DNA of 33,307 bases from a virus (IMGVR_UViG_2636415477_000010), one strand, 5' to 3'. Positions 1,144 to 32,405 are shown, counted from the first letter of the stretch. The notes: a model not told the origin generated them from the sequence alone. Made by a program: numbers and translations.

Positions 1144-1369
1144 CAGCGATTATCCGTTGGAGTTTTGGGTTTGCGTTTATTGGGAGTTGCGGTTCTGCAA
1201 GCGTTCCTACAAAACGGGAATTTCGGTCAATCATCCAGTAGCGACCAACTTTTATAGCGGGTGGGGCCATCATTTTCCCTTGCGCGTATTTTTTCAGAAC
1301 TCGCTCACTTGGTGCTAAGTCCCCAAATTCTTCTTTAGCCCAGTCCTGTAAAGTGATTAGTCGAGACAT
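1133..1369 (-). CDS. xis: Excisionase (Xis-like)
   Basis: 78-aa ORF immediately upstream of and overlapping int by 11 nt; N-terminal LITLQDWAKEE...PP.IKVGR resembles the lambda Xis motif YLTLQEW...PP.K.GR. Confidence 0.7.
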   Translation of the reverse strand: MSRLITLQDWAKEEFGDLAPSERVLKKYAQGKMMAPPAIKVGRYWMIDRNSRFVGTLAEPQLPINANPKLQRIIADGC

Positions 1370-1508
1370 TTGTCCTCCTCTTAGCTACTGAGGGAGTTTG
1401 TGACCGATATATCTGACATGATATTAAGCTCATGGCAGGTACATCTCTTGACTGGTCATAGAGATAAATTTAATGCTGAGAAATGCAGTATTGAATTTAT
1501 CAATTTTT

Positions 1509-1748
1509 CTATTTCCTGCGTATGGCACGTAACTTCTTAATGTGTTCTGCTGTATCGATCTCTTCGGCTATCCGATCTGCATCAGCTTTATTCACAGGTT
1601 CAAAGTCATGATTAAAGCGGAACATGCTGGCGATACATGTTCTGCCTTTTCGGATGTAGTGAACTTTGTTGTGGGTAGAACGCAGGATTTTGCAGGGAGT
1701 GCCGTGGTGGTCGACGTACCAGGTGTTAGGAAAAATGATTCTGAACAT
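1509..1748 (-). CDS. Hypothetical small early-left protein
   Basis: 79-aa ATG-initiated ORF co-oriented with the early-left operon; no family recognised. Confidence 0.4.
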   Translation of the reverse strand: MFRIIFPNTWYVDHHGTPCKILRSTHNKVHYIRKGRTCIASMFRFNHDFEPVNKADADRIAEEIDTAEHIKKLRAIRRK

Positions 1749-1795
1749 TTTTACACCTCAGTTGGACGATGTTGAAATTTGCTGCTTTGAGGCCA

Positions 1796-2014
1796 TCACA
1801 GTCCCCATTGTTTGTTCTTAAGTTCGATCTCCTCCTGGCAACTTGCACAAGTCCGACAACCCTGAACGGCCAGGCGTCTTCGTTCATCTATCGGATCGCC
1901 ACACTCACAACAATGAGTGGCAGATATAGCCTGGTGGTTCAGGCGGCGCATTTTTATTGCTGTGTTGCGCTGTAATTCTTCAATTTCTGATGCTGAATCA
2001 ATGATGTCTGCCAT
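1796..2014 (-). CDS. TraR/DksA-family C4 zinc-finger protein
   Basis: 72 aa with CxxC-(17 aa)-CxxC (CCECGDPIDERRRLAVQGCRTCASC), as in the TraR-like proteins common in lambdoid early-left regions. Confidence 0.7.
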   Translation of the reverse strand: MADIIDSASEIEELQRNTAIKMRRLNHQAISATHCCECGDPIDERRRLAVQGCRTCASCQEEIELKNKQWGL

Positions 2015-2112
2015 CTTTCATTAATCCCTGAATTGTTGGTTAATACGCTTGAGGGTGAATGCGAATAATAAAAAAGGAGCCTGTAGCTCCATGATGATTT
2101 TATTTTTCATGT

Positions 2113-2394
2113 TCACCGTTCCTTAAAGACGCCGTTTAACATGCCGATCGCCAGGCTTAAATGAGTCGGTGTGAATCCCATCAGCGTTACCGTTTCGCGG
2201 TGCTTCTTCAGTACGCTACGGCAAATGTCATCGACGTTTTTATCCGGAAACTGCTGTCTGGCTTTTTTGATTTCATAATTAGCCTGACGGGCAATACTGC
2301 GAAGGGCGTTTTCTTGCTGAGGTGTCATTGAGCAAGTCCCATGTCGGCAAGCATAAGCACACAGAATATGAAGCCCGCTGCCAGAAAAATGCAT
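2113..2394 (-). CDS. Hypothetical protein (alternative ATG start at 2328 gives 71 aa)
   Basis: ORF in early-left orientation between the TraR-like gene and exo; no family recognised. Confidence 0.4.
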   Translation of the reverse strand: MHFSGSGLHILCAYACRHGTCSMTPQQENALRSIARQANYEIKKARQQFPDKNVDDICRSVLKKHRETVTLMGFTPTHLSLAIGMLNGVFKER

Positions 2395-2404
2395 TCAGTG
2401 GTTG

Positions 2405-2596
2405 TCATACCTGGTCTCTCTCATCTGCTTCTGCTTTCGCCACCATCATTTCCAGCTTTTGTGAAAGGGATGTGGCTAACGTATGAAATTCTTCGTCTGT
2501 TTCTACTGGTATTGGCACAAACCTGACTCCAATTTGAGCGAGGCTATGTGCCATCTCGATACTCGTTCTTAACTCAACGGGAGATGCTTTGTGCAT
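2405..2596 (-). CDS. Hypothetical small protein
   Basis: 63-aa ATG-initiated ORF directly downstream of exo on the same strand. Confidence 0.35.
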   Translation of the reverse strand: MHKASPVELRTSIEMAHSLAQIGVRFVPIPVETDEEFHTLATSLSQKLEMMVAKAEADERDQV

Positions 2597-2747
2597 ACAG
2601 CCCCCCGTTTATTATTTATCTCCTCAGCCAGCCGCTGGGCTTTCAGTGGATTTTGGATAACAGAAAGGCCGGGAAATACCCAGCCTCGCTTTGTAACGGA
2701 GTAGACGAAAGTGATCGCGCCTACCCGGATATTATCGTGAGGATGCG

Positions 2748-3428
2748 TCATCGCCATTGCTCCCCAAATACAAAACCAATTTCAGCCAGTGCCTCGTCCA
2801 TTTTTTCGATGAACTCCGGCACCATCTCGTCAAAACTCGCCATGTACTTTTCATCCCGCTCAACCACGACATAATGCAGTCCTTCACGCTTCATACGCGG
2901 GTCATAGTTGGCAAAGTACCAGGCATCTTTTCGCGTCACCCACATGCTGTACTGCACCTGGGCCATGTAAGCCGACTTTATGGCCTCGAAACCACCGAGC
3001 CGGAACTTCATGAAATCCCGGGAGGTAAACGGGCATTTCAGCTCAAGGCCATTGCCGTCACTGCATAAACCATCGGGAGAGCAGGCGGTGCGCATACTTT
3101 CGTCGCGATAGATGATCGGGGATTCAGTAACATTCACGCCGGAAGTGAATTTAAACAGGGTTCTGGCGTCGTTCTCGTACTGTTTTCCCCAGGCCAGCGC
3201 CTTAGCATTAACTTCCGGAGCCACACCGGTGCAAACCTCAGCCAGCAAGGTGTGGAAGTAGGACATTTTCATGTCAGGCCACTTCTTTCCTGAGCGGGGC
3301 TTTGCTATCACGTTGTGAACTTCTGAAGCGGTGATGACGCCGAGCCGTAATTTGTGCCACGCATCATCCCCCTGTTCGACAGCTCTCACGTCGATCCCTG
3401 TACGTTGCAGGATAATGTCCGGTGTCAT
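2748..3428 (-). CDS. exo: Lambda exonuclease (Red alpha)
   Basis: 226 aa; translation [40 protein letters not shown]... matches lambda Exo as recalled, near-identical over full length; not verified by alignment. Confidence 0.95.
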
Positions 3429-4210
3429 GCTGCTACCTTCTGCTCTGTGACTTTCTGTTTCAGGAATCCAAGAACCTTCACAGCTTCAGCCTGTGTTAGT
3501 TCTGAAGATGTGTAAATGTTGCGGCGAAAAATCTGGGAACAGAGCGGCAACAGGTCGTCATCCCACGTTTTTTCCATGGAAGTAAGAAGGGCGTTAATTT
3601 CCGACATGGTTTCTTCGTTAACCGGGGTGATGTCGCGTTCCGGCTGACGTTCTGTAGTATATGCAGTATTTTCGACAATACGCTCGGCTTCATCCTTGTC
3701 ATAGATGCCAGCAAATCCGAAGGCCAGGCGAGCACACTGAATCATGGCTTTGTGCCGTAACATCCGTTTGGGATGCGACTGCCACGGCCCCGTGATTTCT
3801 CTGCCTTCGCGAGTTTTGAATGGTTCGCGGCGGCATTCATCCATCCACTCGGTAACGCAGATCGGGTGATTGCGATCTTTGCGGTAAATCCGGCATGTAC
3901 AGGACTCATTGTCCTGCTCAAAGTCCATGCCATCAAACTGCTGGTTTTCATTGATGATGCGGGACCAGCCATCAACGCCAACCACCGGAACGATGCCGTT
4001 CTGCTTATCAGGGAAGGCGTAAATTTCTTTCGTCCACGGATTAAGGCCGTACTGGTTGGCGACGATCAGCAATGCGATGAACTGCGCATCGCTGGCATCA
4101 CCTTTAAATGCCGTCTGACGAAGAGTGGTGATCAGTTCCTGTGGGTCGACAGAATCCATGCCGACACGTTCAGCCAGCTTCCCGGCTAGCGTTGCGAGTG
4201 CTGTACTCAT
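3425..4210 (-). CDS. bet: Lambda Bet (Red beta) single-strand annealing protein
   Basis: 261 aa; [66 protein letters not shown]... matches lambda Bet as recalled; 4-nt overlap with exo. Confidence 0.95.
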
Positions 4211-4215
4211 CCGTT

Positions 4216-4512
4216 TTATACCTCTGAATCAATATCAACATGGTGGTGAGCAATGGTTTCAACCATGTACCGGATGTGTTCTGCCATGCGCTCCTGAAAC
4301 TCAACATCGTCATCAAACGCACGGGTAATGGCTTTTTTGTTGGCCCCGCAGCGTTGCAAATGATCGATGCAGAGTGATTCAAACAGGTGCTGTGGAAGAC
4401 CTTTTTCCATGTCGTCTGCCAGTTCTGCCTCTTTCTCTTCACGGGCGATCTGCTGGTAGTGACGCGCCCAGCTTTGAGCCTCAAGACGATCCTGAATGTA
4501 ATAAGCGTTCAT
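4216..4512 (-). CDS. gam: Gam (RecBCD inhibitor), short 98-aa form
   Basis: [54 protein letters not shown]... matches lambda Gam as recalled; the upstream in-frame reading hits a stop after 18 codons, so no long GamL extension. Confidence 0.9.
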
Positions 4513-4587
4513 GGCTGAACTCCTGAAAATGGCTGTGAAAATATCGCCTGCGAAATGCCGGGCTGATTAGGTAAACAGGAAAGGGGA

Positions 4588-4878
4588 TTAGTGATTCAGG
4601 CCGTTGCCGCGTCCGTCGAGAAAAACTTCCACGAGCAAATCACGGGTATAAGTGCGCTCGATGCCGCGATGCAGATAAAGCCGTCCGCGTAAATTAGCTG
4701 ATGCAGTCCAGGTACCATCTTTGTGTTTGACCAGCATTCCTGGCATGACCGCACCGCGATTAACGGTCTGCGTTCCGTAATGTTGATGAACCATAAAAAC
4801 TCCTGCCCGTAAGCTGGGCTGCTGAACATATAGAGACTTCTGCGCGTATTCAGGCGGTGGATGGCCGCCGGTTGTCAT
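4588..4878 (-). CDS. Hypothetical protein in the position where lambda has N (first gene downstream of the putative pL); no similarity to lambda N recognised
   Basis: The track ORF 4588-4998 begins with TTG; the first ATG in frame is at 4876-4878 with GAGG about 10 nt upstream, giving about 96 aa ([13 protein letters not shown]...). Confidence 0.35.
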
Positions 4879-5063
4879 AACTAAGCCGCCTCGTTGAAGC
4901 GACTGAGGTATGAGGTGTTGAGTTGATTTCAGCTGGTCACACCGACGTTCACGCGTCCGCTTCACCCCTCGCACTCCCCGGAGCCTGCTGAAATTCAAGC
5001 TGCGGATCTAAGCGGTCATCGCAACGGTGAATCAGGTGATTGCCGTATCGTTGTGTTGTTGCG

Positions 5064-5115
5064 ACATGGTGATAATAGCTATTGCTATTGGCTGTATCAA
5101 TACTTATTGCTATTG
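5064..5115 (-). promoter_or_regulatory. Putative pL promoter with operator boxes (oL)
   Basis: On the minus strand: -35 TTGATA (plus 5095-5100), 17-nt spacer, -10 TATTAT (plus 5072-5077); two copies of ATTGCTATT at 5081-5089 and 5106-5114, 25 bp apart, overlap it. Confidence 0.5.
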
Positions 5116-5240
5116 ATTGATGTGTTTTGATATTAACTGTTTGATAGCAAAAAGAATTAATTTTGTGACTTGTATCGCATAGCGATAACTGAAGGGAGGA
5201 TGTGGTGGTTTTTCGAACGGTTTGTGTGATGAGGGGACAA

Positions 5241-5265
5241 AAGAAAACCCGGCACGGTGGCCGGG
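5241..5265 (-). terminator. Intrinsic terminator ending the cI-linked two-gene operon
   Basis: Perfect 6-bp stem CCCGGC/GCCGGG (5248-5253 and 5260-5265) with 6-nt loop; on the minus strand it is followed by TTTTCTT (plus 5241-5247); sits 5 nt after the stop of the 125-aa gene. Confidence 0.6.
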
Positions 5266-5269
5266 ATTC

Positions 5270-5647
5270 TTACGCAGGTAGGTAAAGATATGATTGTGGT
5301 GGCTTAATATTACTACCTAGAGCAGAGATAGGAATTGGTTCTTTATATCTTTCCACTTCACCAATTTTTATTGCGTAGGCCTTTTCTCTACCTGAATAAT
5401 ATGAGTCATAAAATTGCTTAGAAATACCTGCGTGTTTTTCCGTCTTTTTCCAAAGAGATTCCGGTTCGTCACTTAGTATTGATTCAATACGGAATTGACC
5501 AACAACTTTACCTAATGGCATCGTGGCATAAATAACAACGGTGCTAATTTGCGGATTTTTGAATATACCTTTACGAAACTCGAACCGCTTTGTTCCGTTC
5601 AATATTTTTTCTGCAAACTCAGGCTTAATGGATAATAAAACTTTCAT
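5270..5647 (-). CDS. ASCH-like (PUA-fold) small protein, second gene of the AT-rich immunity-region module
   Basis: 125 aa; N-terminus MKVLLSIKPEFAEKILNGTKRFEFRK resembles the ASCH signature as I recall it; overlaps the 3' end of the upstream gene by 23 nt; visibly AT-rich. Confidence 0.6.
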   Translation of the reverse strand: MKVLLSIKPEFAEKILNGTKRFEFRKGIFKNPQISTVVIYATMPLGKVVGQFRIESILSDEPESLWKKTEKHAGISKQFYDSYYSGREKAYAIKIGEVERYKEPIPISALGSNIKPPQSYLYLPA

Positions 5648-6698
5648 TTATCTTGCCTAACTCGATGATCTTTAAGAACTGCTCATTTGTGAGTTTAAAG
5701 TGACTCCATCGGAATGCACGCGAACCATTTAGCCCCACATGATCTATTAAAATAGCACGATTGGGTCTCTTTGACAAAGACAGATTGTATGTGAATCTTA
5801 TAATGAAAGGGTATCGACGTTCTTTATAGATTTTTCTGAGTTCATCTTCAGAAAATACGCTAAAACGAATACAATAGTCTACAAAACTATCTTCGCTTAA
5901 AAATTCAGAAATATTTTTTACGCTCTCAACTACACATAATGTACTGGCTACAGAACGATAGCGAGCTGGCCCTTTTTTGTCTCCGGTTCTATAGATGACA
6001 ATGATATCTCCTCTTTTCATTCCCATCACAGAACGCATTCCACATATGTAAATTTTATGAATGCTGTTAGCATGGGATATATCTTTGACAATATCTGGTG
6101 ATTCATTTACAAGTTTTGAATCAGGGAATAGTCTAGTGTGATATTCGGGATAAATCGCCAGTAAATATTTGTTGGCCCTTGATGTCATTATTCGAGGGTA
6201 ATCTAATAAAATATCACCATAAGGCTCATGCAAAGACCTCGCATATACAAACTCTTTCCCGTTATGTGTTTCTTTTTCACCATGAATGTAAAATCCGTAC
6301 GTTTGGAAAAGTTTTATTAGATGGACGTGTTTGTCGAAAACAGTAACATAAATATCATCAGATTTTGATGAAAATGCATGGTCAAACGCTTTTTTTAGAA
6401 ATCGTTGTCCGCGAAGGGTGCCTTTAGATTCAAATTTGAATGTTCCTATCTTTAGATGACGTCCTGGTGGGAGCGCTGGATTAATGTCATTTGCATCATC
6501 ATTTTCTTTTAGATACATAAAACCTTCGATTTTATGCTTGTCATCATAGAGCACATAAGCTGATTCTCCTTCTCTGGCTTTTTTTTCTAACCAAAGAGGA
6601 AACTCTTTATAATCTTTTTTTAAAGAGTCAAAAAATGGGTCATTGTGATCAAAATCAGAGAATTTCTCATATTTTAAAGTATCCATTAAGTTCTCCAT
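5625..6698 (-). CDS. Two-domain protein of unknown function with possible GNAT-like N-terminal half and PUA/ASCH-like C-terminal half; first gene of the AT-rich module downstream of cI
   Basis: 357-aa ORF with ATG at 6698; alternative ATG at 6686 has GGAG 6 nt upstream; segment DDIYVTVFDKHVHLIKLFQTYGFYIHGEK resembles the GNAT beta5-alpha4 motif; segment IYICGMRSVMGMKRGDIIVIYRTGD resembles PUA-like barrels; domain calls are by eye only. Confidence 0.6.
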   Translation of the reverse strand: MENLMDTLKYEKFSDFDHNDPFFDSLKKDYKEFPLWLEKKAREGESAYVLYDDKHKIEGFMYLKENDDANDINPALPPGRHLKIGTFKFESKGTLRGQRFLKKAFDHAFSSKSDDIYVTVFDKHVHLIKLFQTYGFYIHGEKETHNGKEFVYARSLHEPYGDILLDYPRIMTSRANKYLLAIYPEYHTRLFPDSKLVNESPDIVKDISHANSIHKIYICGMRSVMGMKRGDIIVIYRTGDKKGPARYRSVASTLCVVESVKNISEFLSEDSFVDYCIRFSVFSEDELRKIYKERRYPFIIRFTYNLSLSKRPNRAILIDHVGLNGSRAFRWSHFKLTNEQFLKIIELGKINESFIIH

Positions 6699-6766
6699 TC
6701 TAAAATGAATAATTAAGTTGTTTTACTGAATGAGCACAATGCCCGGTTGATAATTTTTAATTGGTA

Positions 6767-7459
6767 CTATCCATGCTTCCTATACGTCTGCGGCATGCTC
6801 CCAATAACTTTCCCGAAGATAAATACCCGGTTCATCTCATCTTTCTCGATCGGGTCCCACGGTGAGTAGCTTTTGTTATCAGAGATAACCAGCAGCTTAT
6901 CCTTCATCATTTGCAGGCGCTTTACATGGGCTGTGTCGTCGTACAGAAACGCATAGATACCATCACCGTCGAAAGATTTAACCGTGATATCAACGAATAG
7001 AAGATCACCAGGTTCAATCGTTCCTGACATGCTGTCACCGCGTACGTTAATGATGCGGATATTTTCTGCCTTCCTACCATCGAACATGTGACGAGCATCG
7101 TCAAACGAGTACTCAACCGAGCGTAGAACTTCTACAAACTCACGGTTGATGACTCCCGGCCCGGCACTCACTTCTATATCAAGAACGTCAATCTTGAAGT
7201 ATTTGGGATGGTTGGCAGTAGGCTTCCCTAATTGTTGACCGTCATTTCTCATCGGGCCTATGCCTGATGAGAGCCACTCTGTTCGAACACCCAATGCATT
7301 AGCTATTTCAACAATTTTTGTTGAGCCGCGCGCGTTGCCGCTTGTCAGTCTCCAGATTGTGGGTTGAGCTACGCCAGACGCCTTTGCAAGAGCGCCTTGA
7401 GACATTCCAGATTGTTCCATCGCTAGGTTTAAGCGATCAGCAAGAGTTTCTTTTTTCAT
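6767..7459 (-). CDS. cI: CI-type prophage repressor (N-terminal HTH, C-terminal LexA-like S24 autopeptidase domain)
   Basis: The track ORF to 7495 starts with TTG; first ATG at 7457-7459 gives MKKETLADRLNLAMEQSGMSQGALAKASGV... (HTH), with the C-terminal NVRGDSMSGTIEPGDLLFVD...KRL pattern typical of S24 self-cleaving repressors. Confidence 0.85.
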   Translation of the reverse strand: MKKETLADRLNLAMEQSGMSQGALAKASGVAQPTIWRLTSGNARGSTKIVEIANALGVRTEWLSSGIGPMRNDGQQLGKPTANHPKYFKIDVLDIEVSAGPGVINREFVEVLRSVEYSFDDARHMFDGRKAENIRIINVRGDSMSGTIEPGDLLFVDITVKSFDGDGIYAFLYDDTAHVKRLQMMKDKLLVISDNKSYSPWDPIEKDEMNRVFIFGKVIGSMPQTYRKHG

Positions 7460-7569
7460 AAGTTTTAATTTATACGCTTGCGTATTGATGGTCAAAACAC
7501 GTTTTGCTATTGTTATGATTAATACGCATTGCTATTATTTATTCATTGTAATACCAATAGGAATTAATA
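7460..7569. promoter_or_regulatory. Divergent pRM/pR control region with operator boxes (oR)
   Basis: Two boxes TTTGCTATT (7503-7511) and ATTGCTATT (7528-7536), 25 bp apart; candidate pR -35 TTGTTA (7510-7515), 17-nt spacer, -10 TATTAT (7533-7538); AGGA ribosome-binding site before cro. Confidence 0.55.
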
Positions 7570-7797
7570 ATGACAAATCAAACCATTCAACTCGCAATCA
7601 GTATTACAGGTAGTCAAAAACGACTGGCAGATCTATGCGGTGTAGCCCAGCCCACTGTTTGGCGTTGGCTACACGGTGGCGGAATTGATGCCCGCTATGT
7701 AATGAAAATTGTCTCAGCCACTGGTGGAAAGATTAAACCAGCAGATATTCGTCCCGACCTCGCACCATTGTTTAACGCGAGTAATTCTGCCGCCTAA
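7570..7797 (+). CDS. cro: Cro-like HTH regulator (YdaS-like)
   Basis: 75 aa divergent from cI across the operator region; HTH segment QKRLADLCGVAQPTVWRWL. Confidence 0.75.
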   Translation: MTNQTIQLAISITGSQKRLADLCGVAQPTVWRWLHGGGIDARYVMKIVSATGGKIKPADIRPDLAPLFNASNSAA

Positions 7798-7821
7798 TCT
7801 GCGGCGTTAACTGATAAGGCA

Positions 7822-8367
7822 ATGACTATGCAACCACTTACATACCAACAGACTAGCGGATTTAGCCCGACTGCGGTGATAAATCGTTCTCAAACAAAAC
7901 AGGCGCCAGGCCACGAAAAAATCCGTGATGCCGTTCGCGCCTGGTCGGCTGCAGATAATCAGGATGTTGTTGCCGCACTCATTGTGAATGAGTATCGGGA
8001 GCAGGGCGGCGGCACCATCGATTTTCCTGATGATGTCAGCCGTGCACGCCAGAAGCTGTTCCGCTTCCTCGATAACAAATTCGATTCTGAAAAATACCGA
8101 AATAACGTGCGTGAACTGACCCCGGCAATTCTGGCGGTACTACCGCTGGAATATCGCGGCCACCTGGTTGAGCAGGATAGCTTCATGGCTCGGCTGGCTG
8201 AAATGGAAAAGGAACTCAGTGAGGCAAAACAGGCTGTCATTCTCAACGCACCACGCCACCAGAAACTGAAGGAGATGAGTGAAGGCATTGTGTCGATGTT
8301 TCGTGTGGACCCGGATCTGGCTGGTCCACTGATGGCGATGGTCACCACCATGCTGGGGGCAATATGA
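7822..8367 (+). CDS. YdaT-like protein in the cII position
   Basis: 181-aa ORF between cro and the replication genes; internal LTPAILAVLPLEYR segment resembles what I recall of YdaT-family prophage proteins; unverified. Confidence 0.5.
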   Translation: MTMQPLTYQQTSGFSPTAVINRSQTKQAPGHEKIRDAVRAWSAADNQDVVAALIVNEYREQGGGTIDFPDDVSRARQKLFRFLDNKFDSEKYRNNVRELTPAILAVLPLEYRGHLVEQDSFMARLAEMEKELSEAKQAVILNAPRHQKLKEMSEGIVSMFRVDPDLAGPLMAMVTTMLGAI

Positions 8368-8453
8368 CAGGTTCGGAAATGGCGAAAGCCGGTCTGCGCG
8401 AACAGAACCGACTTTCAGGTGCAAATCGTAACACACTCATTGCGGGAGGAATT

Positions 8454-9383
8454 ATGGCAAACACTGCTGAGATATTCAATTTTCCAGTGCCGGATGTGGC
8501 ACAAAAGGAGCCGCGCGTGGCAGATCTCGATGATGGTTATACGCGCATTGCAAATGAGTTGCTGGAAGCTGTGATGCTGGCCGGATTAACACAGCACCAG
8601 CTTCTGGTCTTCCTGGCTGTCATGCGCAAAACATATGGCTTTAATAAAAAACTGGATTGGGTGAGCAACGAGCAACTTTCCGAGTTGACCGGGATATTGC
8701 CGCACAAGTGTTCTGCTGCAAAAAGTGTTCTGGTAAAGCGTGGGATTTTTATTCAGAGCGGGCGGAATATCGGCATTAATAATGTGGTCAGTGAATGGTC
8801 AACATTACCCGAATCAGGTAAGAAAAATAAAGTTTACCTGAAAGAGGTAAATTTACCTGAATCAGGTAAGAAAAGTTTACCCAAATCAGGTAAAGGCGTT
8901 TACCCGAATCAGGTAAACACAAAAGACAAACTAACAAAAGACAATATAAAACCTTTTTCGTCCGAGAATTCTGACGAATCCTCTGACCAGCCAGAAAACG
9001 ATCTTCCTGTGGTGAAACCGGATGCTGCAATTCAGAGCGGCAGCAAGTGGGGGACAGCAGAAGACCTGACCGCCGCAGAGTGGATGTTTGACATGGTGAA
9101 GACCATCGCGCCATCAGCCAGAAAACCAAATTTTGCAGGGTGGGCTAACGATATCCGCCTGATGCGTGAACGTGACGGACGTAACCACCGCGACATGTGC
9201 GTGCTGTTCCGCTGGGCATGCCAGGACAACTTCTGGTCCGGTAACGTGCTGAGTCCGGCCAAACTCCGCGACAAGTGGACTCAACTCGAAATCAACCGTA
9301 ACAAGCAACAGGCTGGCGTGACAGCCGGAAAATCAAAACTCGACCTGACAAACACTGACTGGATTTACGGGGTGGATTTATGA
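8454..9383 (+). CDS. O: Replication initiator O (lambda O-like), containing the ori iterons
   Basis: ATG at 8454 preceded by GGGAGGA; N-terminus MANTAEIFNFP...VADLDDGYTRIANELLEA...LAVMRKTYGFNK resembles lambda O; stop overlaps the P start (ATGA). Confidence 0.85.
   Translation: MANTAEIFNFPVPDVAQKEPRVADLDDGYTRIANELLEAVMLAGLTQHQLLVFLAVMRKTYGFNKKLDWVSNEQLSELTGILPHKCSAAKSVLVKRGIFIQSGRNIGINNVVSEWSTLPESGKKNKVYLKEVNLPESGKKSLPKSGKGVYPNQVNTKDKLTKDNIKPFSSENSDESSDQPENDLPVVKPDAAIQSGSKWGTAEDLTAAEWMFDMVKTIAPSARKPNFAGWANDIRLMRERDGRNHRDMCVLFRWACQDNFWSGNVLSPAKLRDKWTQLEINRNKQQAGVTAGKSKLDLTNTDWIYGVDL
8805..8917. repeat. Replication origin iterons (four good copies plus one degenerate) inside O
   Basis: Near-palindromic repeats TTACC(C/T)(G/A)AATCAGGTAA at about 8805, 8852, 8876 and 8899, followed by an A-rich stretch 8918-8960, as at lambda ori. 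Confidence 0.75.
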
Positions 9384-10081
9384 AAAACATCGCCGCACAG
9401 ATGGTTAACTTTGACCGTGAGCAGATGCGCCGGATCGCCAACAACATGCCGGAACAGTACGACGAAAAGCCGCAGGTACAGCAGGTAGCGCAGATCATCA
9501 ACGGTGTGTTCAGCCAGTTACTGGCAACTTTCCCGGCGAGTCTGGCTAACCGTGACCAGAACGAACTGAATGAAATCCGCCGCCAGTGGGTTCTGGCTTT
9601 CCGGGAAAACGGGATCACCACAATGGAACAGGTTAACGCAGGAATGCGCGTAGCCCGTCGGCAGAATCGACCATTTCTGCCATCACCCGGGCAGTTTGTT
9701 GCATGGTGCCGGGAAGAAGCATCCGTTATCGCCGGACTGCCAAACGTCAGCGAGCTGGTTGATATGGTTTACGAGTATTGCCGGAAGCGAGGCCTGTATC
9801 CGGATGCGGAGTCTTATCCGTGGAAATCAAACGCGCACTACTGGCTGGTTACCAACCTGTATCAGAACATGCGGGCCAATGCGCTTACTGATGCGGAATT
9901 ACGCCGTAAGGCCGCAGATGAGCTTGTCCATATGACTGCGAGAATTAACCGTGGTGAGGCGATCCCTGAACCAGTAAAACAACTTCCTGTCATGGGCGGT
10001 AGACCTCTAAATCGTGCACAGGCTCTGGCGAAGATCGCAGAAATCAAAGCTAAGTTCGGACTGAAAGGAGCAAGTGTATGA
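9380..10081 (+). CDS. P: Replication protein P (DnaB helicase loader)
   Basis: 233 aa; MKNIAAQMVNFDREQMRRIANNMPEQYDEKPQVQQVAQIINGVFSQLLATFPAS... matches lambda P as recalled, near-identical. Confidence 0.95.
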   Translation: MKNIAAQMVNFDREQMRRIANNMPEQYDEKPQVQQVAQIINGVFSQLLATFPASLANRDQNELNEIRRQWVLAFRENGITTMEQVNAGMRVARRQNRPFLPSPGQFVAWCREEASVIAGLPNVSELVDMVYEYCRKRGLYPDAESYPWKSNAHYWLVTNLYQNMRANALTDAELRRKAADELVHMTARINRGEAIPEPVKQLPVMGGRPLNRAQALAKIAEIKAKFGLKGASV

Positions 10082-10380
10082 CGGGCAAAGAGGCAATTAT
10101 TCATTACCTGGGGACGCATAAGAGCTTCTGTGCACAGGACGTTGCCGCGGTAACAGGCGCAACCGTAACCAGCATAAATCAGGCTGTGGCTAAAATGGCG
10201 CGGGCAGGAATCCTGGTCGTTGATGGTAAGGTCTGGCGAACGGTGTATTATCGGTTCGCTACCAGAGAAGAACGGGAAGGAAAGGTGAGCGCGAATTTGA
10301 TTTTTAAGGAGTGTCGCCAGAGTGCCGCGATGAAACGGGTATTGAGGGTATATAAAAGAACATCAATGGGTACACAATGA
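10078..10380 (+). CDS. ren: Ren
   Basis: MTGKEAIIHYLGTHKSFCAQDVAAVTGATVTSINQAVAKMARAG... matches lambda Ren as recalled; the C-terminal tail differs. Confidence 0.85.
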   Translation: MTGKEAIIHYLGTHKSFCAQDVAAVTGATVTSINQAVAKMARAGILVVDGKVWRTVYYRFATREEREGKVSANLIFKECRQSAAMKRVLRVYKRTSMGTQ

Positions 10381-10447
10381 TGAAACAGGTGAGTTGAGTT
10401 CAAACTGTAGTACAATTCTCTCCAGTTTGAACAGGAAAGAATATGCT

Positions 10448-10780
10448 ATGAACCCTTATATTTATCTTGGTGGTGCAATACTTGCAGAGGTCATTGGTAC
10501 AACCTTAATGAAGTTTTCAGAAGGTTTTACACGGTTATGGCCATCTGTTGGTACAATTATTTGTTATTGTGCATCATTCTGGTTATTAGCTCAGACGCTG
10601 GCTTATATACCTACAGGGATTGCTTATGCTATCTGGTCAGGAGTCGGTATCGTTCTGATTAGTTTGCTTTCCTGGGGATTTTTTGGTCAACGACTGGACC
10701 TGCCAGCTATCATAGGCATGATGTTGATTTGTGCCGGTGTGTTAGTCATTAACTTGTTGTCACGAAGTGCACCGCATTAA
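10448..10780 (+). CDS. emrE: Small multidrug resistance efflux transporter EmrE
   Basis: 110 aa from the ATG at 10448 (AGGAAAGA upstream); MNPYIYLGGAILAEVIGTTLMKFSEGFTRLWPSVGTII... matches E. coli EmrE as recalled. Confidence 0.9.
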   Translation: MNPYIYLGGAILAEVIGTTLMKFSEGFTRLWPSVGTIICYCASFWLLAQTLAYIPTGIAYAIWSGVGIVLISLLSWGFFGQRLDLPAIIGMMLICAGVLVINLLSRSAPH

Positions 10781-10948
10781 AAAATAATTATCCTTGAGAT
10801 AACAGGAATCTGATTTGTGCATATTATGGCTAATGTTCGGGGCACCTTTATAATTATGATTGCATTTGCGCGATCATTGCGCCTTTATGCATAATGAGAT
10901 CAAGGCACATCAAATAAAATAACGATAGGTCACAACAATGAGGTTTTT

Positions 10949-11500
10949 ATGAAAAAACTTATCGTTTCAAGTGTATTGGCATTCATAACATTTTCTGCGC
11001 AGGCCGCAGCATTTCAGGTCACTAGTAATGAAATAAAAACAGGAGAGCAACTTACAACGTCTCATGTATTTTCTGGATTTGGGTGTGAAGGGGGTAATAC
11101 ATCGCCCTCATTAACCTGGTCTGGTGCTCCTGAAGGCACCAAAAGCTTTGCCGTAACTGTGTATGATCCAGATGCTCCTACAGGCAGTGGATGGTGGCAC
11201 TGGACTGTTGCTAATATTCCAGCAACTGTAACATATTTGCCCACTGATGCAGGAAGACGTGATGGTACAAAACTTCCGACTGGTGCTGTTCAAGGCCGAA
11301 ATGATTTTGGTTATGCAGGATTTGGTGGAGCATGTCCTCCCAAAGGAGATAAACCCCATCATTACCAGTTTAAAGTATGGGCTCTAAAAACTGATAAGAT
11401 TCCTGTGGATTCTAATTCCAGCGGAGCGTTAGTTGGTTATATGCTTAATGCCAATAAAATTGCAACCGCTGAGATAACACCAGTTTATGAGATAAAGTAG
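10949..11500 (+). CDS. ybcL: Secreted PEBP/RKIP-family protein (YbcL-like)
   Basis: 183 aa with an N-terminal signal peptide (MKKLIVSSVLAFITFSAQAAA); PEBP-like DPDAP...GxWHW...GG.CPP.GDKPHHY motifs. Confidence 0.8.
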   Translation: MKKLIVSSVLAFITFSAQAAAFQVTSNEIKTGEQLTTSHVFSGFGCEGGNTSPSLTWSGAPEGTKSFAVTVYDPDAPTGSGWWHWTVANIPATVTYLPTDAGRRDGTKLPTGAVQGRNDFGYAGFGGACPPKGDKPHHYQFKVWALKTDKIPVDSNSSGALVGYMLNANKIATAEITPVYEIK

Positions 11501-11509
11501 GGTAAGAGT

Positions 11510-12307
11510 ATGCTGGCAAAAGATAAGTCTAACCTAAAGATTGAAGAAATACGGATGCATAAACATCATGAGATTCACAGGGTTAAGCCTCTTATGCCAG
11601 CTTTATGTCGTATCCGTCAGGGAAAAAAAGTTATCAATTGGGAGACGCATAGTCTAACTGTTGATAATAATCAGATAATATTATTTCCCTGTGGATATGA
11701 ATTTTATATTGCGAATTATCCAGAAGCAGGTCTTTATCTTGCAGAAATGCTTTATTATCCCATTGATCTAATTGAAAAGTTTCAAAAATTTTATGCGATA
11801 ACTGATCAAATTCGTAACACGACAGGTTTCTGCTTACCTCAGAACCCCGAGTTAATATATTGTTGGGAGCAACTAAAAACATCTATTTTCCGAGGCTTCT
11901 CAACGCAAATTCAGGAACACTTAGCAATGGGCGTTCTACTTTCATTAGGAGCACATCATGTTAATTGTTTACTTTTATCAGATAGTAAACAATCATTAAT
12001 AAGTCGTTGTTATAACCTAATGCTATCCGAACCTGGAACAAAATGGACAGCAAACAAGGTAGCGAGATATCTCTACATTTCTGTTTCCACATTGCATCGC
12101 CGTCTGGCAAGCGAGGGAATAAGTTTTCAAAGTATATTGGACGACGTGAGGTTAAATAATGCGTTGTCTGCTATACAAACGACAGTAAAACCCATCAGCG
12201 AGATTGCCAGGGAAAATGGTTACAAGTGTCCTTCTCGTTTTACTGAAAGGTTCCATAATCGTTTTAAGATAACACCAAGAGAGCTAAGAAAAGCGTCCAG
12301 AGAGTAA
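11510..12307 (+). CDS. ybcM: AraC-family transcriptional regulator (YbcM-like)
   Basis: 265 aa; C-terminal AraC-type HTH ([21 protein letters not shown]...[32 protein letters not shown]). Confidence 0.8.
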
Positions 12308-12640
12308 AAGTATTTTATGAAGGAGCAACAGCATCGATTTTTATTTTGGAAAATAAATACGGCATACTCAACCTATTGTATCCTGAACAATCCGGTGACT
12401 TCTGCGCTAATCGGGGACGTTTATAAGCACATATAATTGATACTATCTTCCTCCATCACAATTTCAGAAATGCACGTGTGATTTTTTTGCATCCGGCGTT
12501 TGGACTATGTGGAGCTCAAGAGTGGGAAAGTTACAAGAGGTTGAGGGGATAATTAAAGGGATACTTATGACATTAGATATCAGGTTAGGTACGGATATCG
12601 TTGTTATTAAATCTAGTTGATACGTTAATTGTTCACTGGG

Positions 12641-12671
12641 TATTATTAAAAATGGGGCGTTGAAACGCCCC
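12641..12671 (-). terminator. Candidate intrinsic terminator downstream of the porin gene
   Basis: Stem GGGGCGT/ACGCCCC (12654-12671); on the minus strand it is followed by ATTTTTAATAAT. Confidence 0.45.
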
Positions 12672-12808
12672 AGAAAATAAAGGGTAATATATAACAGAAG
12701 GTTTATATAGTCAGAAGCAAGATAGTGCTTCTAAGGAAAGTGGCTTGAGGGGGCCACTTATATGTTGGGGAGGCAAAGCCTCCCACAACATATCTTTGAG
12801 TAATCAGA

Positions 12809-13891
12809 TTAGAACTGGTAAACCAATCCTACAGCAACGATATCATCGGTAGCAACGCCAGATGCTTTCGTGAAATCGCTCTTATCAATCAGGTTGATTT
12901 TGTAATCAACAAAAGTGGACATATTTTTGTTGAAGTAATAGGTTGCACCTACATCAATATATTCAACCAGGTCCTGATCACCCCACGCACCCAAGTCTTT
13001 TCCTTTAGATTGCAGGTAAGCAACGGACGGACGCAGACCGAAGTCGAACTGATATTGTGCAACTACTTCGAAGTTTTGTGCTTTGTTGGCAATATGGTTA
13101 TTACCAAAAACAGTCATGTTCTGGGTTTCAGAATAGGTGGTAGCCAGATAGATGTTGTTCGCATCATATTTCAGACCAGCTGCCCATACTTCAGCATTTT
13201 GACCAGATGCATTCAGGCTGTTGTTACCGTAGATAACCTGATCATTAGTGCGGTCAGATTTAGCATAGGTTGCACCTACACCGAATCCTTCATACTCATA
13301 AGTAGTGGAGAAACCGAAACCATCACCGTTAGCTTCAGTTACGTCAGTGCGGTCATTTTTACCCTGATACTGAGCAGCAAAGTTCAGACCATCAACCAGA
13401 CCAAAGAAGTCGTTGTTACGATAAGTTGCAACACCAGTAGTGCGACCAGTCATGAACACATCTGTTTGGGTCCAGGTATCACCACCGAATTCTGGCAGGA
13501 CGTCAGTCCACGCACCGATGTCGTATGCTACACCGTAGTTACGGCCGTAATCGATTGAGCCGTAATCACCAAATTTCAGGCCTGCAAATGCAAGACGGGT
13601 TTTGTCTTTGGAAGAACCTTGAGATTCAGCACGGTTGCCTTTGAATTCATATTCCCACTGACCGAAACCAGTCAGTTGATCGTTGATTTGGGTTTCACCT
13701 TTGAAGCCAAGACGGGCATAAGTAGTATCACCATCATCTGCATCATTAGAGGAGAAGTAGTGCTTGGCATTAACTTTCCCGTATAGATCCAGCTTGTTAC
13801 TGTCTTTATTATAAATTTCAGCTGCCTGAGCAGACATCGCCATCAGTACTGATGCAGCTACAGCAGAAATTGCCACTGTTAATTTTTTCAT
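12809..13891 (-). CDS. nmpC: Outer-membrane general porin, OmpC/OmpF family (NmpC/Lc-like lysogenic-conversion porin)
   Basis: 360 aa with signal peptide [23 protein letters not shown], glycine/aromatic-rich beta-barrel sequence, and the C-terminal ...VGLVYQF ending typical of porins. Confidence 0.9.
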
Positions 13892-14318
13892 TGTACGCCC
13901 TTTTTTTTGAACTATTATTAAAAAATGATGTCACTGCGCGATAAATATTCATCTAATCAATGCGATTATTTCAAGATGTAAGTTTTAGTTTCTCATTTAA
14001 TTTGTGAAGTAGATCTCTATTTTTATCTGAACCTTTTCTATCTAATCCTATTCATGGCTCTTGTTTGAACGAAAATAAATCTATTAGCTAATTTATATTA
14101 ATGGCACTTATTTATAAGCACTCTATAATTCTTTAGCTTAATTTAAACAAACTAAAAATAACATCGGAAATTATTCATTGGTTATTTGTTGAAGTTTTCT
14201 TATGTATTTGTGGTGGTGTTTTGAACACTCGGTGGCATTCTCACAAATATCATTTAGTAGTTTACGTACGTAAAAAATTGGTTATGCTGTTAAGAGTGGT
14301 TACTTCGTCACACAGCTT

Positions 14319-14350
14319 AAACCCGCCGTCGAGCGGGTTTTTCCATTTTT
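14319..14350 (+). terminator. Intrinsic terminator upstream of the lysis cassette (possible tR'-like)
   Basis: Stem ACCCGC/GCGGGT (14321-14326 and 14333-14338) with loop CGTCGA, followed by TTTTTCCATTTTTT. Confidence 0.55.
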
Positions 14351-14480
14351 TGAGTCTCGATATTAGCTGATAACCCAATACCTGAGTTATTCACTGACTC
14401 CGAATCTGTTACGTTTCTGCCTTTATTGCGATACGTAGTATCCCCTTAATTTACACCCGCTTTGTCTGCGAGGTGGGGTT

Positions 14481-14696
14481 ATGAAATCCATGGATAAGTT
14501 AACAACGGGTGTCGCCTATGGCACCTCAGCAGGTAGTGCCGGGTACTGGTTTTTACAGTTGCTCGATAAAGTCACGCCCTCACAGTGGGCGGCAATAGGT
14601 GTGCTGGGTAGCCTGGTATTTGGCCTGCTGACGTACCTGACAAACCTTTATTTCAAGATTAAAGAAGATAAGCGTAAGGCTGCACGGGGAGAGTAA
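14481..14696 (+). CDS. S: Class II holin (phage-21 S-type pinholin)
   Basis: 71 aa with dual-start motif MKSMDK, two hydrophobic segments and a charged C-terminus ([13 protein letters not shown]); GGTGGGG ribosome-binding site. Confidence 0.85.
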
Positions 14697-14700
14697 TTCA

Positions 14701-15015
14701 ATGACTCAAAACTATGAACTGATTGTGAAAGGGATCCGCAATTTTGAGAATAAAGTTACGGTAACTTTAGCGTTACGGGACAAAAAACGCTTTGACGGTG
14801 AAATTTTTGACCTGGACATCTCGCTGGACCGTGTTGAAGGTGCCGCGCTGGAGTTTTATGAGGCTGCAGCCAGAAGGAGCATCAGACAGGTCTTCCTGGA
14901 TGTTGCTGCCGGGTTATGTGAAGGGGACGAGCTGTTGCCAGAAACGCGCCCCTGTTCAGAGGCGCGGTATACCATAAAAATTAACAGTTCAGATAACTCG
15001 ATTACTGGTTGTTAG
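14701..15015 (+). CDS. Hypothetical protein inserted between holin and endolysin
   Basis: 104-aa ATG ORF starting 5 nt after the holin stop; no family assigned with confidence. Confidence 0.5.
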   Translation: MTQNYELIVKGIRNFENKVTVTLALRDKKRFDGEIFDLDISLDRVEGAALEFYEAAARRSIRQVFLDVAAGLCEGDELLPETRPCSEARYTIKINSSDNSITGC

Positions 15016-15251
15016 CCTTTTGTTTCAGTTGGTTTTCCAATATCTTTCATTGGTAGCAGCATTTCCAGATTGCTTTTGATATATGGATTATTTACATGTT
15101 CATTTAATTGATGAATGATTCCATTTTTTTCATTCTGGTCCAATACGGAAAATATTACTGTAATCATATATTTAAGAGCTTCAATTTCTTTTGCTGTTGA
15201 TGCAGGAGATGAGCAGTCAGCTGTAATATTGATAAAAACTTCTTTTTGCAT
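15012..15251 (-). CDS. Hypothetical small protein, reverse-oriented inside the lysis cassette
   Basis: 79-aa ATG ORF in an AT-rich segment, convergent with the 104-aa ORF. Confidence 0.35.
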   Translation of the reverse strand: MQKEVFINITADCSSPASTAKEIEALKYMITVIFSVLDQNEKNGIIHQLNEHVNNPYIKSNLEMLLPMKDIGKPTETKG

Positions 15252-15385
15252 ATCAAATCCTCAGATGGGGTAGCTCAGCCAGCATCCCCCATAATCCTTA
15301 ACCAGAGCGCCAGTGTCCTACCACTGACGGGCTGAATGCTTAACATATCCAGGGTTCAGAAACCGATAAATCCTGATAAATATCC

Positions 15386-15919
15386 ATGAACGTAAAAATC
15401 AGATACGGCCTGTCGGCTGCTGTTCTGGCGCTGATTGCCGCAGGCGCGTCTGCTCCTCAGATACTTGACCAGTTTCTGGACGAAAAAGAGGGTAACCACA
15501 CAAAGGCATACCGCGATGGTTCCGGCATATGGACCATTTGCCGGGGTGCCACGGTGGTGGATGGTAAACCTGTTATTCCGGGCATGAAACTGTCGAAGGA
15601 AAAATGCGCCCAGGTTAACGCCATTGAGCGGGATAAGGCGCTGGCATGGGTGGAGCGTAATATAAAAGTTCCACTGACCGAGCCACAAAAAGCAGGTATC
15701 GCGTCATTTTGCCCCTATAACATTGGCCCCGGTAAGTGTTTCCCGTCGACGTTTTATAAGCGGCTTAATGCCGGTGATCGTAAAGGTGCCTGTGAGTCGA
15801 TTCGCTGGTGGATTAAGGACGGTGGGCGTGATTGCCGCACACGTTCAAATAACTGCTACGGACAGGTTATTCGTCGTGACCAGGAAAGCGCATTAGCCTG
15901 TTGGGGGATAGATCAGTGA
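15386..15919 (+). CDS. R: SAR endolysin (T4-lysozyme-like muramidase with N-terminal signal-anchor-release domain)
   Basis: 177 aa; N-terminal hydrophobic Gly/Ala-rich segment [16 protein letters not shown], then lysozyme-like core with E...D...T triad context ([20 protein letters not shown]). Confidence 0.85.
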
Positions 15920-32401: not shown

Positions 32402-32405
32402 TCCC

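Follow-up and report, generated by a model that had tools for sequence, protein, structure and literature searches.

Replacement of the nin-Q segment in a Perceval-family lambdoid prophage, probably by recombination with a chromosomal prophage relic

What became of the late antiterminator Q in a lambdoid prophage whose gene content otherwise looks complete? The window, i.e. the whole stretch of 33,307 nucleotides of viral DNA analysed here (IMGVR_UViG_2636415477_000010), follows the lambdoid order int-xis-exo/bet/gam, repressor, cro-like gene, O, P, ren, cargo, lysis, terminase, head and tail, with Pfam matches for the S24 repressor, O, P, holin and lysozyme. The nin genes and Q, which belong between the replication and lysis genes, are missing from it. 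Between ren and the holin gene we found emrE, ybcL, ybcM and a minus-strand porin gene alone, and our ORF and Pfam map agrees with the original prediction in gene order and gap sizes. The genes of this interval are as follows:

10078-10380, plus strand: ren, end of the early-right operon, preceding the cargo (annotated "protein ren" in the colinear LF82, NRG 857C and SCU-124 prophages)
10448-10780, plus strand: emrE, SMR efflux pump (PF00893, E=2e-35), a chimeric gene
10949-11500, plus strand: ybcL, PEBP/Raf-kinase-inhibitor-like, cargo of the relic described below (PF01161, E=3e-42; named ybcL in 536, LF82 and NRG 857C)
11510-12307, plus strand: ybcM, AraC-type regulator with HTH, relic cargo (PF12833, E=1e-16; named ybcM in the relics)
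12653-12672, minus strand: terminator hairpin 3' of the porin gene (terminator scan), present also in PhiR34_1
12809-13891, minus strand: porin gene, nmpC/ompD-like moron (PF00267, E=7e-154), a chimeric gene
14481-14696, plus strand: essD, P21-type holin, first late gene (PF04971, E=2e-35; named essD in relatives)

The 501 bp at 12308-12808 indeed contain no long ORF, as expected of DNA described beforehand as about 500 bp of non-coding sequence; the description is nevertheless incomplete, because the segment carries the ybcM-ybcN spacer, an in-frame fusion of the ybcN start to the 3' end of quuD (12522-12620) and the porin terminators. The gap between porin and holin (13892-14480) measures 589 bp, with a G+C content of 34% over 14001-14500.

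Using tblastn with the Perceval ybcK, hydrolase, ybcN, NinE, YbcO, RusA, YlcG and QuuD as well as an Stx-phage Q as queries, we found no Q, nin or rusA gene in the whole 33.3 kb, which bears out the predicted absence of Q, NinB-H and RusA. The searches returned just two stumps, a ylcH-like small ORF and a match of QuuD residues 98-127 to 12528-12617, i.e. the last 30 quuD codons; a closer look for a Q-like gene yielded nothing beyond this 3' end. Perceval QuuD matches PF06530 (E=9e-54, 180.8 bits), the window has no PF06530 Q gene ahead of its late promoter, and the 32-codon quuD stump has no Pfam match. Another mechanism of late expression had also been considered beforehand, and nothing in the window suggests one: no other Q family, N-like gene or antitermination RNA was detected (tblastn, Pfam, Rfam), and Rfam and tRNA scans returned nothing. 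A second quuD-type Q, or the reciprocal product of the exchange proposed below at the fliE locus, may be present elsewhere in the source genome. The missing genes map to two deletion junctions:

10789-10794: relic-type deletion junction 1 (blastn against PhiR34_1, in which 10789 corresponds to 3789 and 10794 to 5874)
12423-12488: ylcH-like small ORF stump of 22 codons (tblastn)
12522-12620, plus strand: relic-type deletion junction 2, joining the ybcN GTG start in frame to the last 31 quuD codons and leaving a 32-codon stump

At junction 1, ylcJ and ybcK are missing relative to DLP12-type phages. Junction 2, defined by alignment to PhiR34_1 on either side, removes ybcN, ninE, ybcO, rusA, ylcG and the first 96 codons of quuD. 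By descent, the window is a deletion-substitution derivative of the Perceval/DLP12 group of lambdoid phages.

To which phage do the flanks belong? Perceval of E. coli LF82, an active phage that yields virions (PMC9928086), is colinear with the window at about 99% identity over 1-5265, 6767-10789 and 12524-33243, and prophages of NRG 857C, SCU-124 and others are 100% identical to it over 4800-10560. The integrase (1-1143) is the one adjoining icd in LF82, NRG 857C and SCU-124, and ren is of the Perceval type, with 0 differences from LF82 Perceval over 9800-10650. No damage is apparent in any of the structural, lysis and replication genes, which are about 99% identical to those of the active phage. 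From its sequence, we assign the window to the Perceval family of lambdoid prophages, with an integrase of the icd type. The Perceval relatives examined (LF82, NRG 857C, SCU-124) all carry ybcK-hydrolase-ybcN-ninE-ybcO-rusA-ylcG-quuD between emrE and the porin gene. The original prediction had counted emrE and the porin gene as part of an accessory island; neither is a new insertion, both being standard cargo of this phage family, with nin and Q normally between them. The accessory genes kept in the window comprise an efflux pump, a porin, Bor/Iss and a TonB fragment. A 357-aa protein encoded beside cI gave sequence matches solely in contigs shorter than 5 kb.

The layout emrE-ybcL-ybcM-quuD stump-porin is that of a prophage relic located between fliE and yedK on the E. 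coli chromosome. Of the 5,426 complete E. coli genomes, 1,635 or more carry the ybcN'-'quuD junction, always chromosomal, and each of the 11 loci inspected places it between fliE and yedK. The relic haplotypes are diverse, and the phage copy is identical to one variant. As the phage homology of the relic stops at positions equivalent to 10371 and about 14220 of the window, the relic lacks PR' and the holin gene. Its ancestral form is a DLP12-type phage. The relic locus has fliE and yedK as flanks and no phage genes around it, whereas the flanks in the window are ren and the holin gene of a full-length prophage; the window holds a copy of the relic core and not the relic locus. Descent from a DLP12-type phage by deletion alone was considered and dropped, because the junction is widespread on chromosomes and the flanks are of the Perceval type.

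The borders of the relic-derived segment can be drawn to within tens of base pairs:

10651-13394: minimal relic-derived tract of 2,744 bp, in place of 6,400 bp of Perceval-type DNA (L006, 13990-20389)
10565-10650: left crossover interval in emrE, 86 bp of phage/relic identity (last relic difference 10564, first Perceval difference 10651)
13395-13423: right crossover interval in the porin gene, 29 bp of phage/relic identity (last Perceval difference 13394, first relic difference 13424)

Window 10565-13423 (2,859 bp) shows 0 differences from the LF82 fliE-yedK relic and 157 from Perceval in the alignable parts. Outside the tract (9800-10650 and 13395-15498) we counted 0 differences from Perceval versus 12 and 101, respectively, from the relic, and divergence jumps sharply from 0 to about 16% at both borders. 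Since the tract is 100% relic and its flanks are 100% Perceval, 2,744 bp of relic DNA appear to have replaced 6,400 bp of phage DNA comprising the emrE 3' end, a small orf, ybcK, the hydrolase gene, ybcN, ninE, ybcO, rusA, ylcG, quuD and the 3' two-thirds of the porin gene. The predicted island that replaces the nin region and Q is thus more literally true than proposed, the replacing DNA being identical to a chromosomal prophage relic. Both border genes are chimeric. In emrE, phage-type alleles extend to 10564 (5' part) and relic-type alleles begin at 10651 (3' part), and the encoded protein equals relic EmrE; in the porin gene, the 3' two-thirds are relic and the 5' third is phage, the alleles switching within 13395-13423. 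Compared with the Perceval porin, the encoded protein is altered in 20 C-terminal residues; from the porin of the LF82 relic it differs at residue 59. Exact-sequence look-ups of the chimeric porin and EmrE proteins were uninformative as a marker of the recombinant: owing to synonymous DNA differences, thousands of assemblies contain a relic porin with the very same protein sequence.

We consider it likely that the relic tract overwrote the Q/nin segment by homologous recombination and thereby generated a Q-less, late-defective prophage. The donor would be 2.7-2.9 kb of a decayed DLP12-like relic that numerous E. coli chromosomes carry as a fixed resident of the fliE-yedK interval. By gene conversion or a double crossover, with a single exchange in each of emrE and the porin gene, this DNA would have overwritten a much longer homologous phage segment. 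Long before, the relic would have lost ybcK and the ybcN-to-quuD block; owing to these earlier losses, the conversion would have deleted the nin genes, rusA and the Q21/Q933W-family QuuD while importing ybcL and ybcM. The phage encodes exo, bet and gam, and Red-type recombinases drive the exchange of phages with defective prophages via short diverged homologies (De Paepe et al. 2014, PMC3945230).

How would such a prophage express its late genes? The exchange would leave the cis-acting late switch untouched, i.e. the promoter PR', the initial transcribed region and the terminator tR' directly upstream of the holin gene:

14261-14288, plus strand: late promoter PR', assigned by homology, with -35 TTTACG (14261-14266), a 16-nt spacer and -10 TATGCT (14283-14288)
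14319-14350, plus strand: intrinsic terminator tR', an 8-bp G+C-rich stem followed by a T-run (terminator scan)

In Stx2 phage II, the homologue of PR' is found at the stop codon of Q: TTTACG-16 nt-TATCAT there aligns with TTTACG-16 nt-TATGCT of the window. PR' is invariant in PhiR34_1 and an O55:H7 prophage. With a start placed at about 14295, the conserved initial transcribed sequence TAAGAGTGGTTAC is a candidate sigma-dependent pause region; AAGAGT within it presumably represents the A2/T6 pattern of a -10-like element. The position of the Stx2 phage II promoter agrees with the 258 nt mapped between PR' and tR' in Stx phage (PMC7547250). Another candidate, ATGGCA-17-TATAAT at 14101-14129, was rejected because the Stx-phage PR' homology falls at 14261-14288. 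By eye, we saw no TGAGCA, the Q-binding repeat of phage 21 (PMC6606751), in the PR' region, including between -35 and -10. The terminator lies about 25-55 nt downstream of the presumed start and 130 nt upstream of the holin gene, its centroid fold is the hairpin alone (-12 kcal/mol), and it is conserved in Stx2 phage II and DLP12-type phages. The original prediction located this terminator correctly, a real hairpin with a T-run that belongs to the late-promoter cassette; it is no leftover, the whole PR'-tR' segment (13892-14480) being intact and 100% identical to that of active Perceval.

In the absence of Q, RNA polymerase starting from PR' should halt at tR', and the lysis, packaging, head and tail genes would then be silent, while derepression, excision and replication would probably be retained. 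Virions would not be made unless a Q of matching specificity acted in trans or Q were restored by recombination. The predicted late-expression defect is the most likely outcome of the loss of Q, with the PR' start and the tR' efficiency taken from homology; most likely, the prophage is Q-less, late-defective and rescued only by a matching Q in trans. Because the homologous Stx hairpin sits inside a 258-nt leader (PMC7547250), tR' may stop transcription only in part, and some Q-independent expression of the lysis genes is conceivable, as the DLP12 lysis cassette is reported, in work cited in PMC7918800, to be RpoE-dependent.

Is the recombinant a real molecule or a product of assembly? Neither the adjacency ren-emrE-ybcL nor the allele combination at the right-hand junction (best match 98.6%) occurs in any of the 5,426 complete E. 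coli genomes, and the layout was not found in 50,697 phage records. Given this absence from complete genomes, the recombinant is rare, and a single assembly is what vouches for it. The window starts exactly at the integrase stop codon, its last 64 nt are unmatched in LF82 and, as it resembles a stand-alone contig, it may be of short-read origin. An assembler faced with an intact Perceval-like prophage and a relic in one genome might then have threaded the relic middle between the phage flanks by way of the emrE and porin sequences common to both, in which case the Q-less prophage would be no real molecule. Indeed, both parents coexist in LF82, NRG 857C and SK1144, each 100% identical to its part of the window, and the switch points fall exactly within stretches of identity. 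A contig from IMG/VR (L017) has the same ren-emrE-ybcL-ybcM-stump layout with a different relic haplotype and 1 SNP to the window backbone in 4.3 kb; it halts in an IS200 typical of the relic, with an IS200 junction identical to that of the relic in more than 1,100 genomes, and could itself be a chimeric assembly via the 86-bp emrE repeat. A metagenome scan for the ren...junction-1 pattern and a viral-contig scan for the right-junction 58-mer both returned nothing; in metagenomes, the 58-mer had a single match, an ompF/porin hybrid contig that is uninformative on the island haplotype to its left and illustrates that hybrid joins of porin paralogues occur in assemblies. We nevertheless regard an assembly chimera as unlikely. 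Across the 29 bp of identity at the right switch, a de Bruijn graph with k of at least 31 needs reads that carry the relic allele at 13394 together with the phage allele at 13424, and no relic or prophage in the complete genomes has this combination. Moreover, the 86-bp repeat on the left is shorter than an ordinary read, two in-register mis-joins would be needed in one contig, the left junction appears also in the unrelated data set that contains L017, and reciprocal conversion tracts, i.e. Perceval-type porin 5' tracts held by several relics, indicate that the two loci truly recombine.

Nor is the direction of transfer easily reversed. The phage lineage itself could have lost ylcJ-ybcK and ybcN-quuD' in situ, with the relic as its descendant instead of its donor; both deletion junctions are common to the window and the relic, and either way the ancestry must include a DLP12-type form that carried ybcL and ybcM. 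We hold this to be very improbable, given that so sharp a rise in divergence at the two borders marks the tract as imported and that the relic haplotype is fixed in more than 1,600 genomes and diverse, the phage copy being one variant. The flank-identical Perceval-type relatives carry the hydrolase gene and not ybcL-ybcM at this position, and the window is therefore not derivable from them by deletion. A different reading, which we consider quite unlikely, accepts the recombinant as a viable, transmissible lineage without a Q of its own, served by a co-resident Q, the reciprocal product at the fliE locus, read-through from PR or another promoter. Near-identical backbones and layouts with different relic haplotypes in two data sets could reflect one lineage moving between hosts, its apparently intact genes would serve such a lineage, and E. 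coli prophages commonly carry Q genes of the QuuD/Q933W type. However, the window itself offers no substitute for Q, the tract differences match resident relic haplotypes, which independent local conversions or a chimera explain better, and the layout is missing from all the complete genomes and phage records searched.

Relic-mediated loss of Q is, in our reading, an event of a known kind and an ordinary route of prophage decay, here mapped with unusual precision. It would provide a base-pair-resolved case in which an active temperate phage becomes a defective prophage in one step by ectopic recombination with an older relic of its own host chromosome, losing the single regulator needed for virions while accessory and all structural genes remain. 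The current view of lambdoid regulation is unchanged, but a prophage that is complete by gene content may still be without its late switch, a warning for annotation. We anticipate a helper-dependent Perceval-type prophage in strains related to AIEC LF82 and NRG 857C. The exchange between phage locus and relic locus appears, from sequence comparison, to recur. Since the same backbone and left junction occur with different relic haplotypes and conversion has also carried phage sequence into relics, one may speculate that relics repeatedly overwrite the late switch of incoming phages while sparing the cargo, perhaps as a selected disarmament, or that a transmissible lineage relies on Q in trans; this broader reading seems improbable to us.

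Among known systems, Perceval (AIEC LF82, OV696612.1 / NC_011993.1 1173160-1216630, with copies in NRG 857C and SCU-124) is closest to the window in its integrase next to icd, its recombination, replication, lysis, head and tail genes (99-100% identical), its emrE and porin morons and an identical PR'-tR'-holin segment, and differs in carrying ybcK, an alpha/beta hydrolase gene, ybcN, ninE, ybcO, rusA, ylcG and quuD where the window has ybcL, ybcM and the quuD stump. The fliE-yedK relic (e.g. E. coli 536, NC_008253.1, 1913.5-1917.4 kb) is 100% identical to 10565-13423 and shares both deletion junctions, but is flanked by flagellar genes and yedK without other phage genes. DLP12 (qsr', E. coli K-12) and PhiR34_1 (PV340559.1) share the order ren-emrE-...-ybcL-ybcM-...-porin (reverse)-essD, a Q of the Q21/Q933W family and the same PR' core sequence, whereas they retain ylcJ-ybcK and ybcN-ninE-ybcO-rusA-ylcG-quuD and are only 89-95% identical to the window tract. 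DLP12 proper integrates at argU with its own integrase, in contrast to the icd-type integrase of the window. The late operons of phage 21 and 933W/Stx phages (Q21/Q933W, PF06530) have a homologous PR', initial transcribed sequence and hairpin and a P21-type holin, and the QuuD that the parental phage encodes shares 80% identity with an Stx2-phage Q; in Stx phages, however, the 3' end of Q overlaps PR', while in the Perceval family the porin moron separates the two and the window has no Q. The mosaics described by De Paepe et al. (PMC3945230) likewise arise when prophage-remnant DNA replaces a phage segment by homology, with exchange in short stretches of identity and a Red-type recombinase. 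Those, in contrast, were selected as viable phages, whereas the prophage described here would have been crippled, because the segment that it imported came without an essential regulator.

The interval from ren to the holin is arranged as the original prediction had described it, which both the ORF list and the Pfam scans confirmed, and a tblastn search added two gene stumps.

Features from ren to the holin (genes from the ORF list and Pfam scans, long-ORF-free stretch from the ORF list, stumps from tblastn)
10078-10380, ren
10448-10780, emrE
10949-11500, ybcL
11510-12307, ybcM
12308-12808, stretch of 501 bp free of long ORFs
12423-12488, stump of a ylcH-like small ORF, 22 codons
12528-12617, quuD stump, the final 30 codons
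12809-13891, minus strand, porin gene
13892-14480, AT-rich spacer of 589 bp (34% G+C over 14001-14500)
14481-14696, P21-type holin

For tblastn, the entire 33.3-kb window was searched with one Stx-phage Q and with the ten proteins encoded at this position in the closest relative. No gene of the Q/nin interval was found there beyond the two stumps, so that the predicted absence of Q, nin and rusA genes stands. Scans of the window for Rfam families and tRNAs returned none of either.

Here, we found that the prophage next to icd in E. coli LF82, which is phage Perceval, is colinear with the window at ~99% identity over 1-5265, 6767-10789 and 12524-33243. Virion and plaque production have been shown for Perceval (PMC9928086). 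NRG 857C, SCU-124 and several other complete genomes hold copies that are 100% identical to the window at 4800-10560. In every such relative, emrE and the porin gene are separated by a small ORF, ybcK, an alpha/beta hydrolase gene, ybcN, ninE, ybcO, rusA, ylcG and quuD. QuuD matches PF06530 in Pfam (E=9e-54), the family that Yin et al. (bioRxiv 10.1101/651190) define as Q21/Q933W, and shares 80% identity with the Q of an Stx2 phage.

Other parts of the element are mosaic as well. The module beside the repressor gene (5266-6766), which encodes an ASCH-domain protein of 125 aa and a 357-aa protein without Pfam match, is unlike that of LF82 Perceval and the same as in NRG 857C and SCU-124; in a large assembly collection it was seen on contigs of <5 kb only. 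Around 50 SNPs relative to SCU-124 cluster at 3360-3980 (exo/bet recombination genes), and at 29998-33307 the tail genes are just 94% identical to SCU-124, with a final 64 nt that have no LF82 match. The NRG 857C prophage copy carries an 11-kb satellite-like insert in its major capsid gene (L029 30341-41408; ~24660 in the window), which codes for an integrase, a primase, its own capsid and decoration proteins, and HEPN and DUF262 proteins.

Comparing the window site by site with LF82 Perceval and with the LF82 relic, the old prophage remnant between fliE and yedK, gave an unambiguous pattern of parentage. Over 9800-10650 the window shows 0 differences from Perceval and 12 from the relic; over 10565-13423 it shows 0 from the relic and 157 from Perceval in the alignable parts, and lacks 5.4 kb present in Perceval; over 13395-15498 it again shows 0 from Perceval and 101 from the relic. 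This pattern places the switches as follows, together with the deletion junctions that separate the window from the DLP12-type phages PhiR34_1 and the O55:H7 prophage.

Switch intervals and deletion junctions
10565-10650, left switch interval, 86 bp of shared identity in emrE
10789/10794, junction of deletion 1, ylcJ-ybcK gone
12522-12620, junction of deletion 2, which runs from the ybcN start codon into quuD and leaves the ybcN GTG in frame with the last 31 quuD codons
13395-13423, right switch interval, 29 bp of shared identity in the porin gene

Thus a 6,400-bp stretch of Perceval (L006 13990-20389) is replaced by 2,744 bp of relic DNA. The element is best read as a substitution-deletion derivative of Perceval whose inserted core is a copy of the fliE-yedK relic. 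The initial proposal of an island in place of the nin region and Q is literally true and, with the relic tract as the island, mechanistically correct; emrE and the porin gene, however, are usual cargo of the family and not newcomers.

The relic itself is a DLP12-type cargo/nin/Q segment that was deleted twice. A 301-bp probe spanning junction 2 was searched against 5,426 complete E. coli genomes and found an unbroken match in at least 1,635, chromosomal in all; in 99 of these at least 1,635 genomes the match reached ≥99% identity. The junction belongs to a 3.85-kb relic (emrE, ybcL, ybcM, quuD stump, porin) in E. coli 536, LF82, NRG 857C and eight more assemblies; this relic is flanked by fliE and yedK with no additional phage genes, and its homology to the window spans 10371 to ~14220. 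In the predicted 32-codon ORF that the second deletion produced (12522-12620), ybcN supplies the start codon and ribosome-binding site, and the final 31 quuD codons follow in frame; this ORF is conserved in >1,600 genomes. Two Shigella flexneri loci, L003 (CP182557.1) and L004 (CP182556.1), keep the ybcN'-'quuD junction and have lost the porin gene almost wholly, the equivalents of window positions 12616 and 13851 lying only ~30 bp apart. In the relic of >1,100 complete E. coli genomes an IS200/IS605 element follows directly after the quuD stump (equivalent to window 12628).

The late promoter was located by homology. When the porin-holin spacer was compared with phage genomes by distant blastn, 14258-14342 proved homologous to DNA at the stop codon of Q in many Stx phages. 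The Stx2 phage II version is TTTACG, 16 nt, TATCAT, then the conserved GATAAGAGTGGTTAC and a G+C-rich hairpin with a T-run. A start set ~7 nt past that -10 lies 258 nt before the T-run of the next terminator, which equals the spacing of PR' and tR' that dRNA-seq and Term-seq gave for Stx phages (PMC7547250).

Predicted PR' of the window
14261-14266, -35 TTTACG, by homology to Stx2 phage II
14283-14288, -10 TATGCT, after a 16-nt spacer

In the window, TATGCT is followed by GTTAAGAGTGGTTAC and by a hairpin with T-run at 14319-14350. This core is unchanged in PhiR34_1 and the O55:H7 prophage, and Perceval matches the window at 100% across the full spacer (13892-14480). The Q-binding TGAGCA repeats known from phage 21 (PMC6606751) are not evident in the PR' region of the window. 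The terminator, earlier thought to be possibly a leftover tR', is indeed tR', but the cis-acting part of the late switch, to which it belongs, is intact and not vestigial. Relic homology ends ~40 bp before PR', and conversion therefore could not damage it. Because PR' was found in the porin-holin spacer, the porin moron lies between Q and PR' in the Perceval/DLP12-type family. QuuD has 127 aa against 157 aa for a Stx-phage Q (L016 1043-1516) and lacks ~25 C-terminal residues; the 3' end of the Stx-phage Q gene overlaps PR'. Weak similarity just upstream of the window's PR' (14228-14260) suggests that an ancestral Q gene received the moron in its 3' end.

Is the recombinant a real molecule? The window resembles a self-contained contig, starting at the integrase stop codon and ending in the stretch unmatched in LF82, and it therefore has to be considered whether mis-joining during assembly produced it. 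The adjacency ren-emrE-ybcL occurs in 0 of the 5,426 complete E. coli genomes, and the allele combination at the right switch in none of those searched (best match 98.6%), as such a chimera would have it. However, it would require two in-register mis-joins, of which the right one would have to use an identity of only 29 bp, too short to mislead assemblers with k≥31, and the left one an 86-bp repeat shorter than a normal read. Moreover, the IMG/VR contig L017, which comes from an unrelated metagenome, shares the backbone (1 SNP in 4.3 kb), the left switch and the layout through the quuD stump. Its tract is a different relic haplotype and ends in a copy (L017 6405-6660) of the IS200/IS605 element that interrupts the relic of >1,100 genomes, so that L017 either stems from a conversion event of its own or was mis-assembled through the 86-bp repeat.

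In several relics (L009, L011-L014) the 5' half of the porin gene (window-equivalent 13388-13891) is a Perceval-type tract, which ends exactly at the start codon. Conversion thus runs from phage to relic as well, and these tracts argue independently for recombination between the two loci. One metagenome pattern scan and one viral-contig scan for the junctions gave no matches; looking up exact proteins was of no help, since the DNA differences that are diagnostic do not alter the protein. The sole match of a right-junction 58-mer was the metagenome contig L028 (OLOA01020030.1, 1-2601), in which aspC-ompF is joined to the relic porin 5' half within the conserved porin core, and which is either a genuine ompF/porin hybrid or an assembly chimera. 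Taken together, we consider it likely that the recombinant molecule is real.

We infer that the parental phage depends on a Q of the Q21/Q933W type acting at PR', and that with Q missing PR' transcripts should stop at tR', ~130 nt ahead of the holin, which would leave the element without lysis, packaging, head or tail proteins. Since the window carries a repressor and a cro-like gene along with O, P, int and xis, derepression, excision and replication should still occur, and the late defect could be complemented if another prophage supplied a Q of matching specificity. The simplest form of the exchange would be a gene conversion, carried out by RecA or by the exo/bet system that the phage encodes; experiments have yielded such phage-relic mosaics, in which the exchange points fall within short tracts of identity (PMC3945230). 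As the two loci lie ~0.8 Mb apart in inverted orientation (LF82, NRG 857C), a reciprocal double exchange is also conceivable, which would carry quuD to the fliE locus. We regard this full explanation, including the late-expression defect that we infer, as likely.

Prophage decay through the loss of regulatory genes and recombination between phages and cryptic prophages are both well known. The present case is unusual only in its resolution, in that donor, recipient and crossover points can all be named, and it hints that such overwriting by relics may recur. Because it has no Q, the element does not count as a functional Q-dependent late operon, from which it differs in lacking Q while retaining that operon's promoter and terminator.
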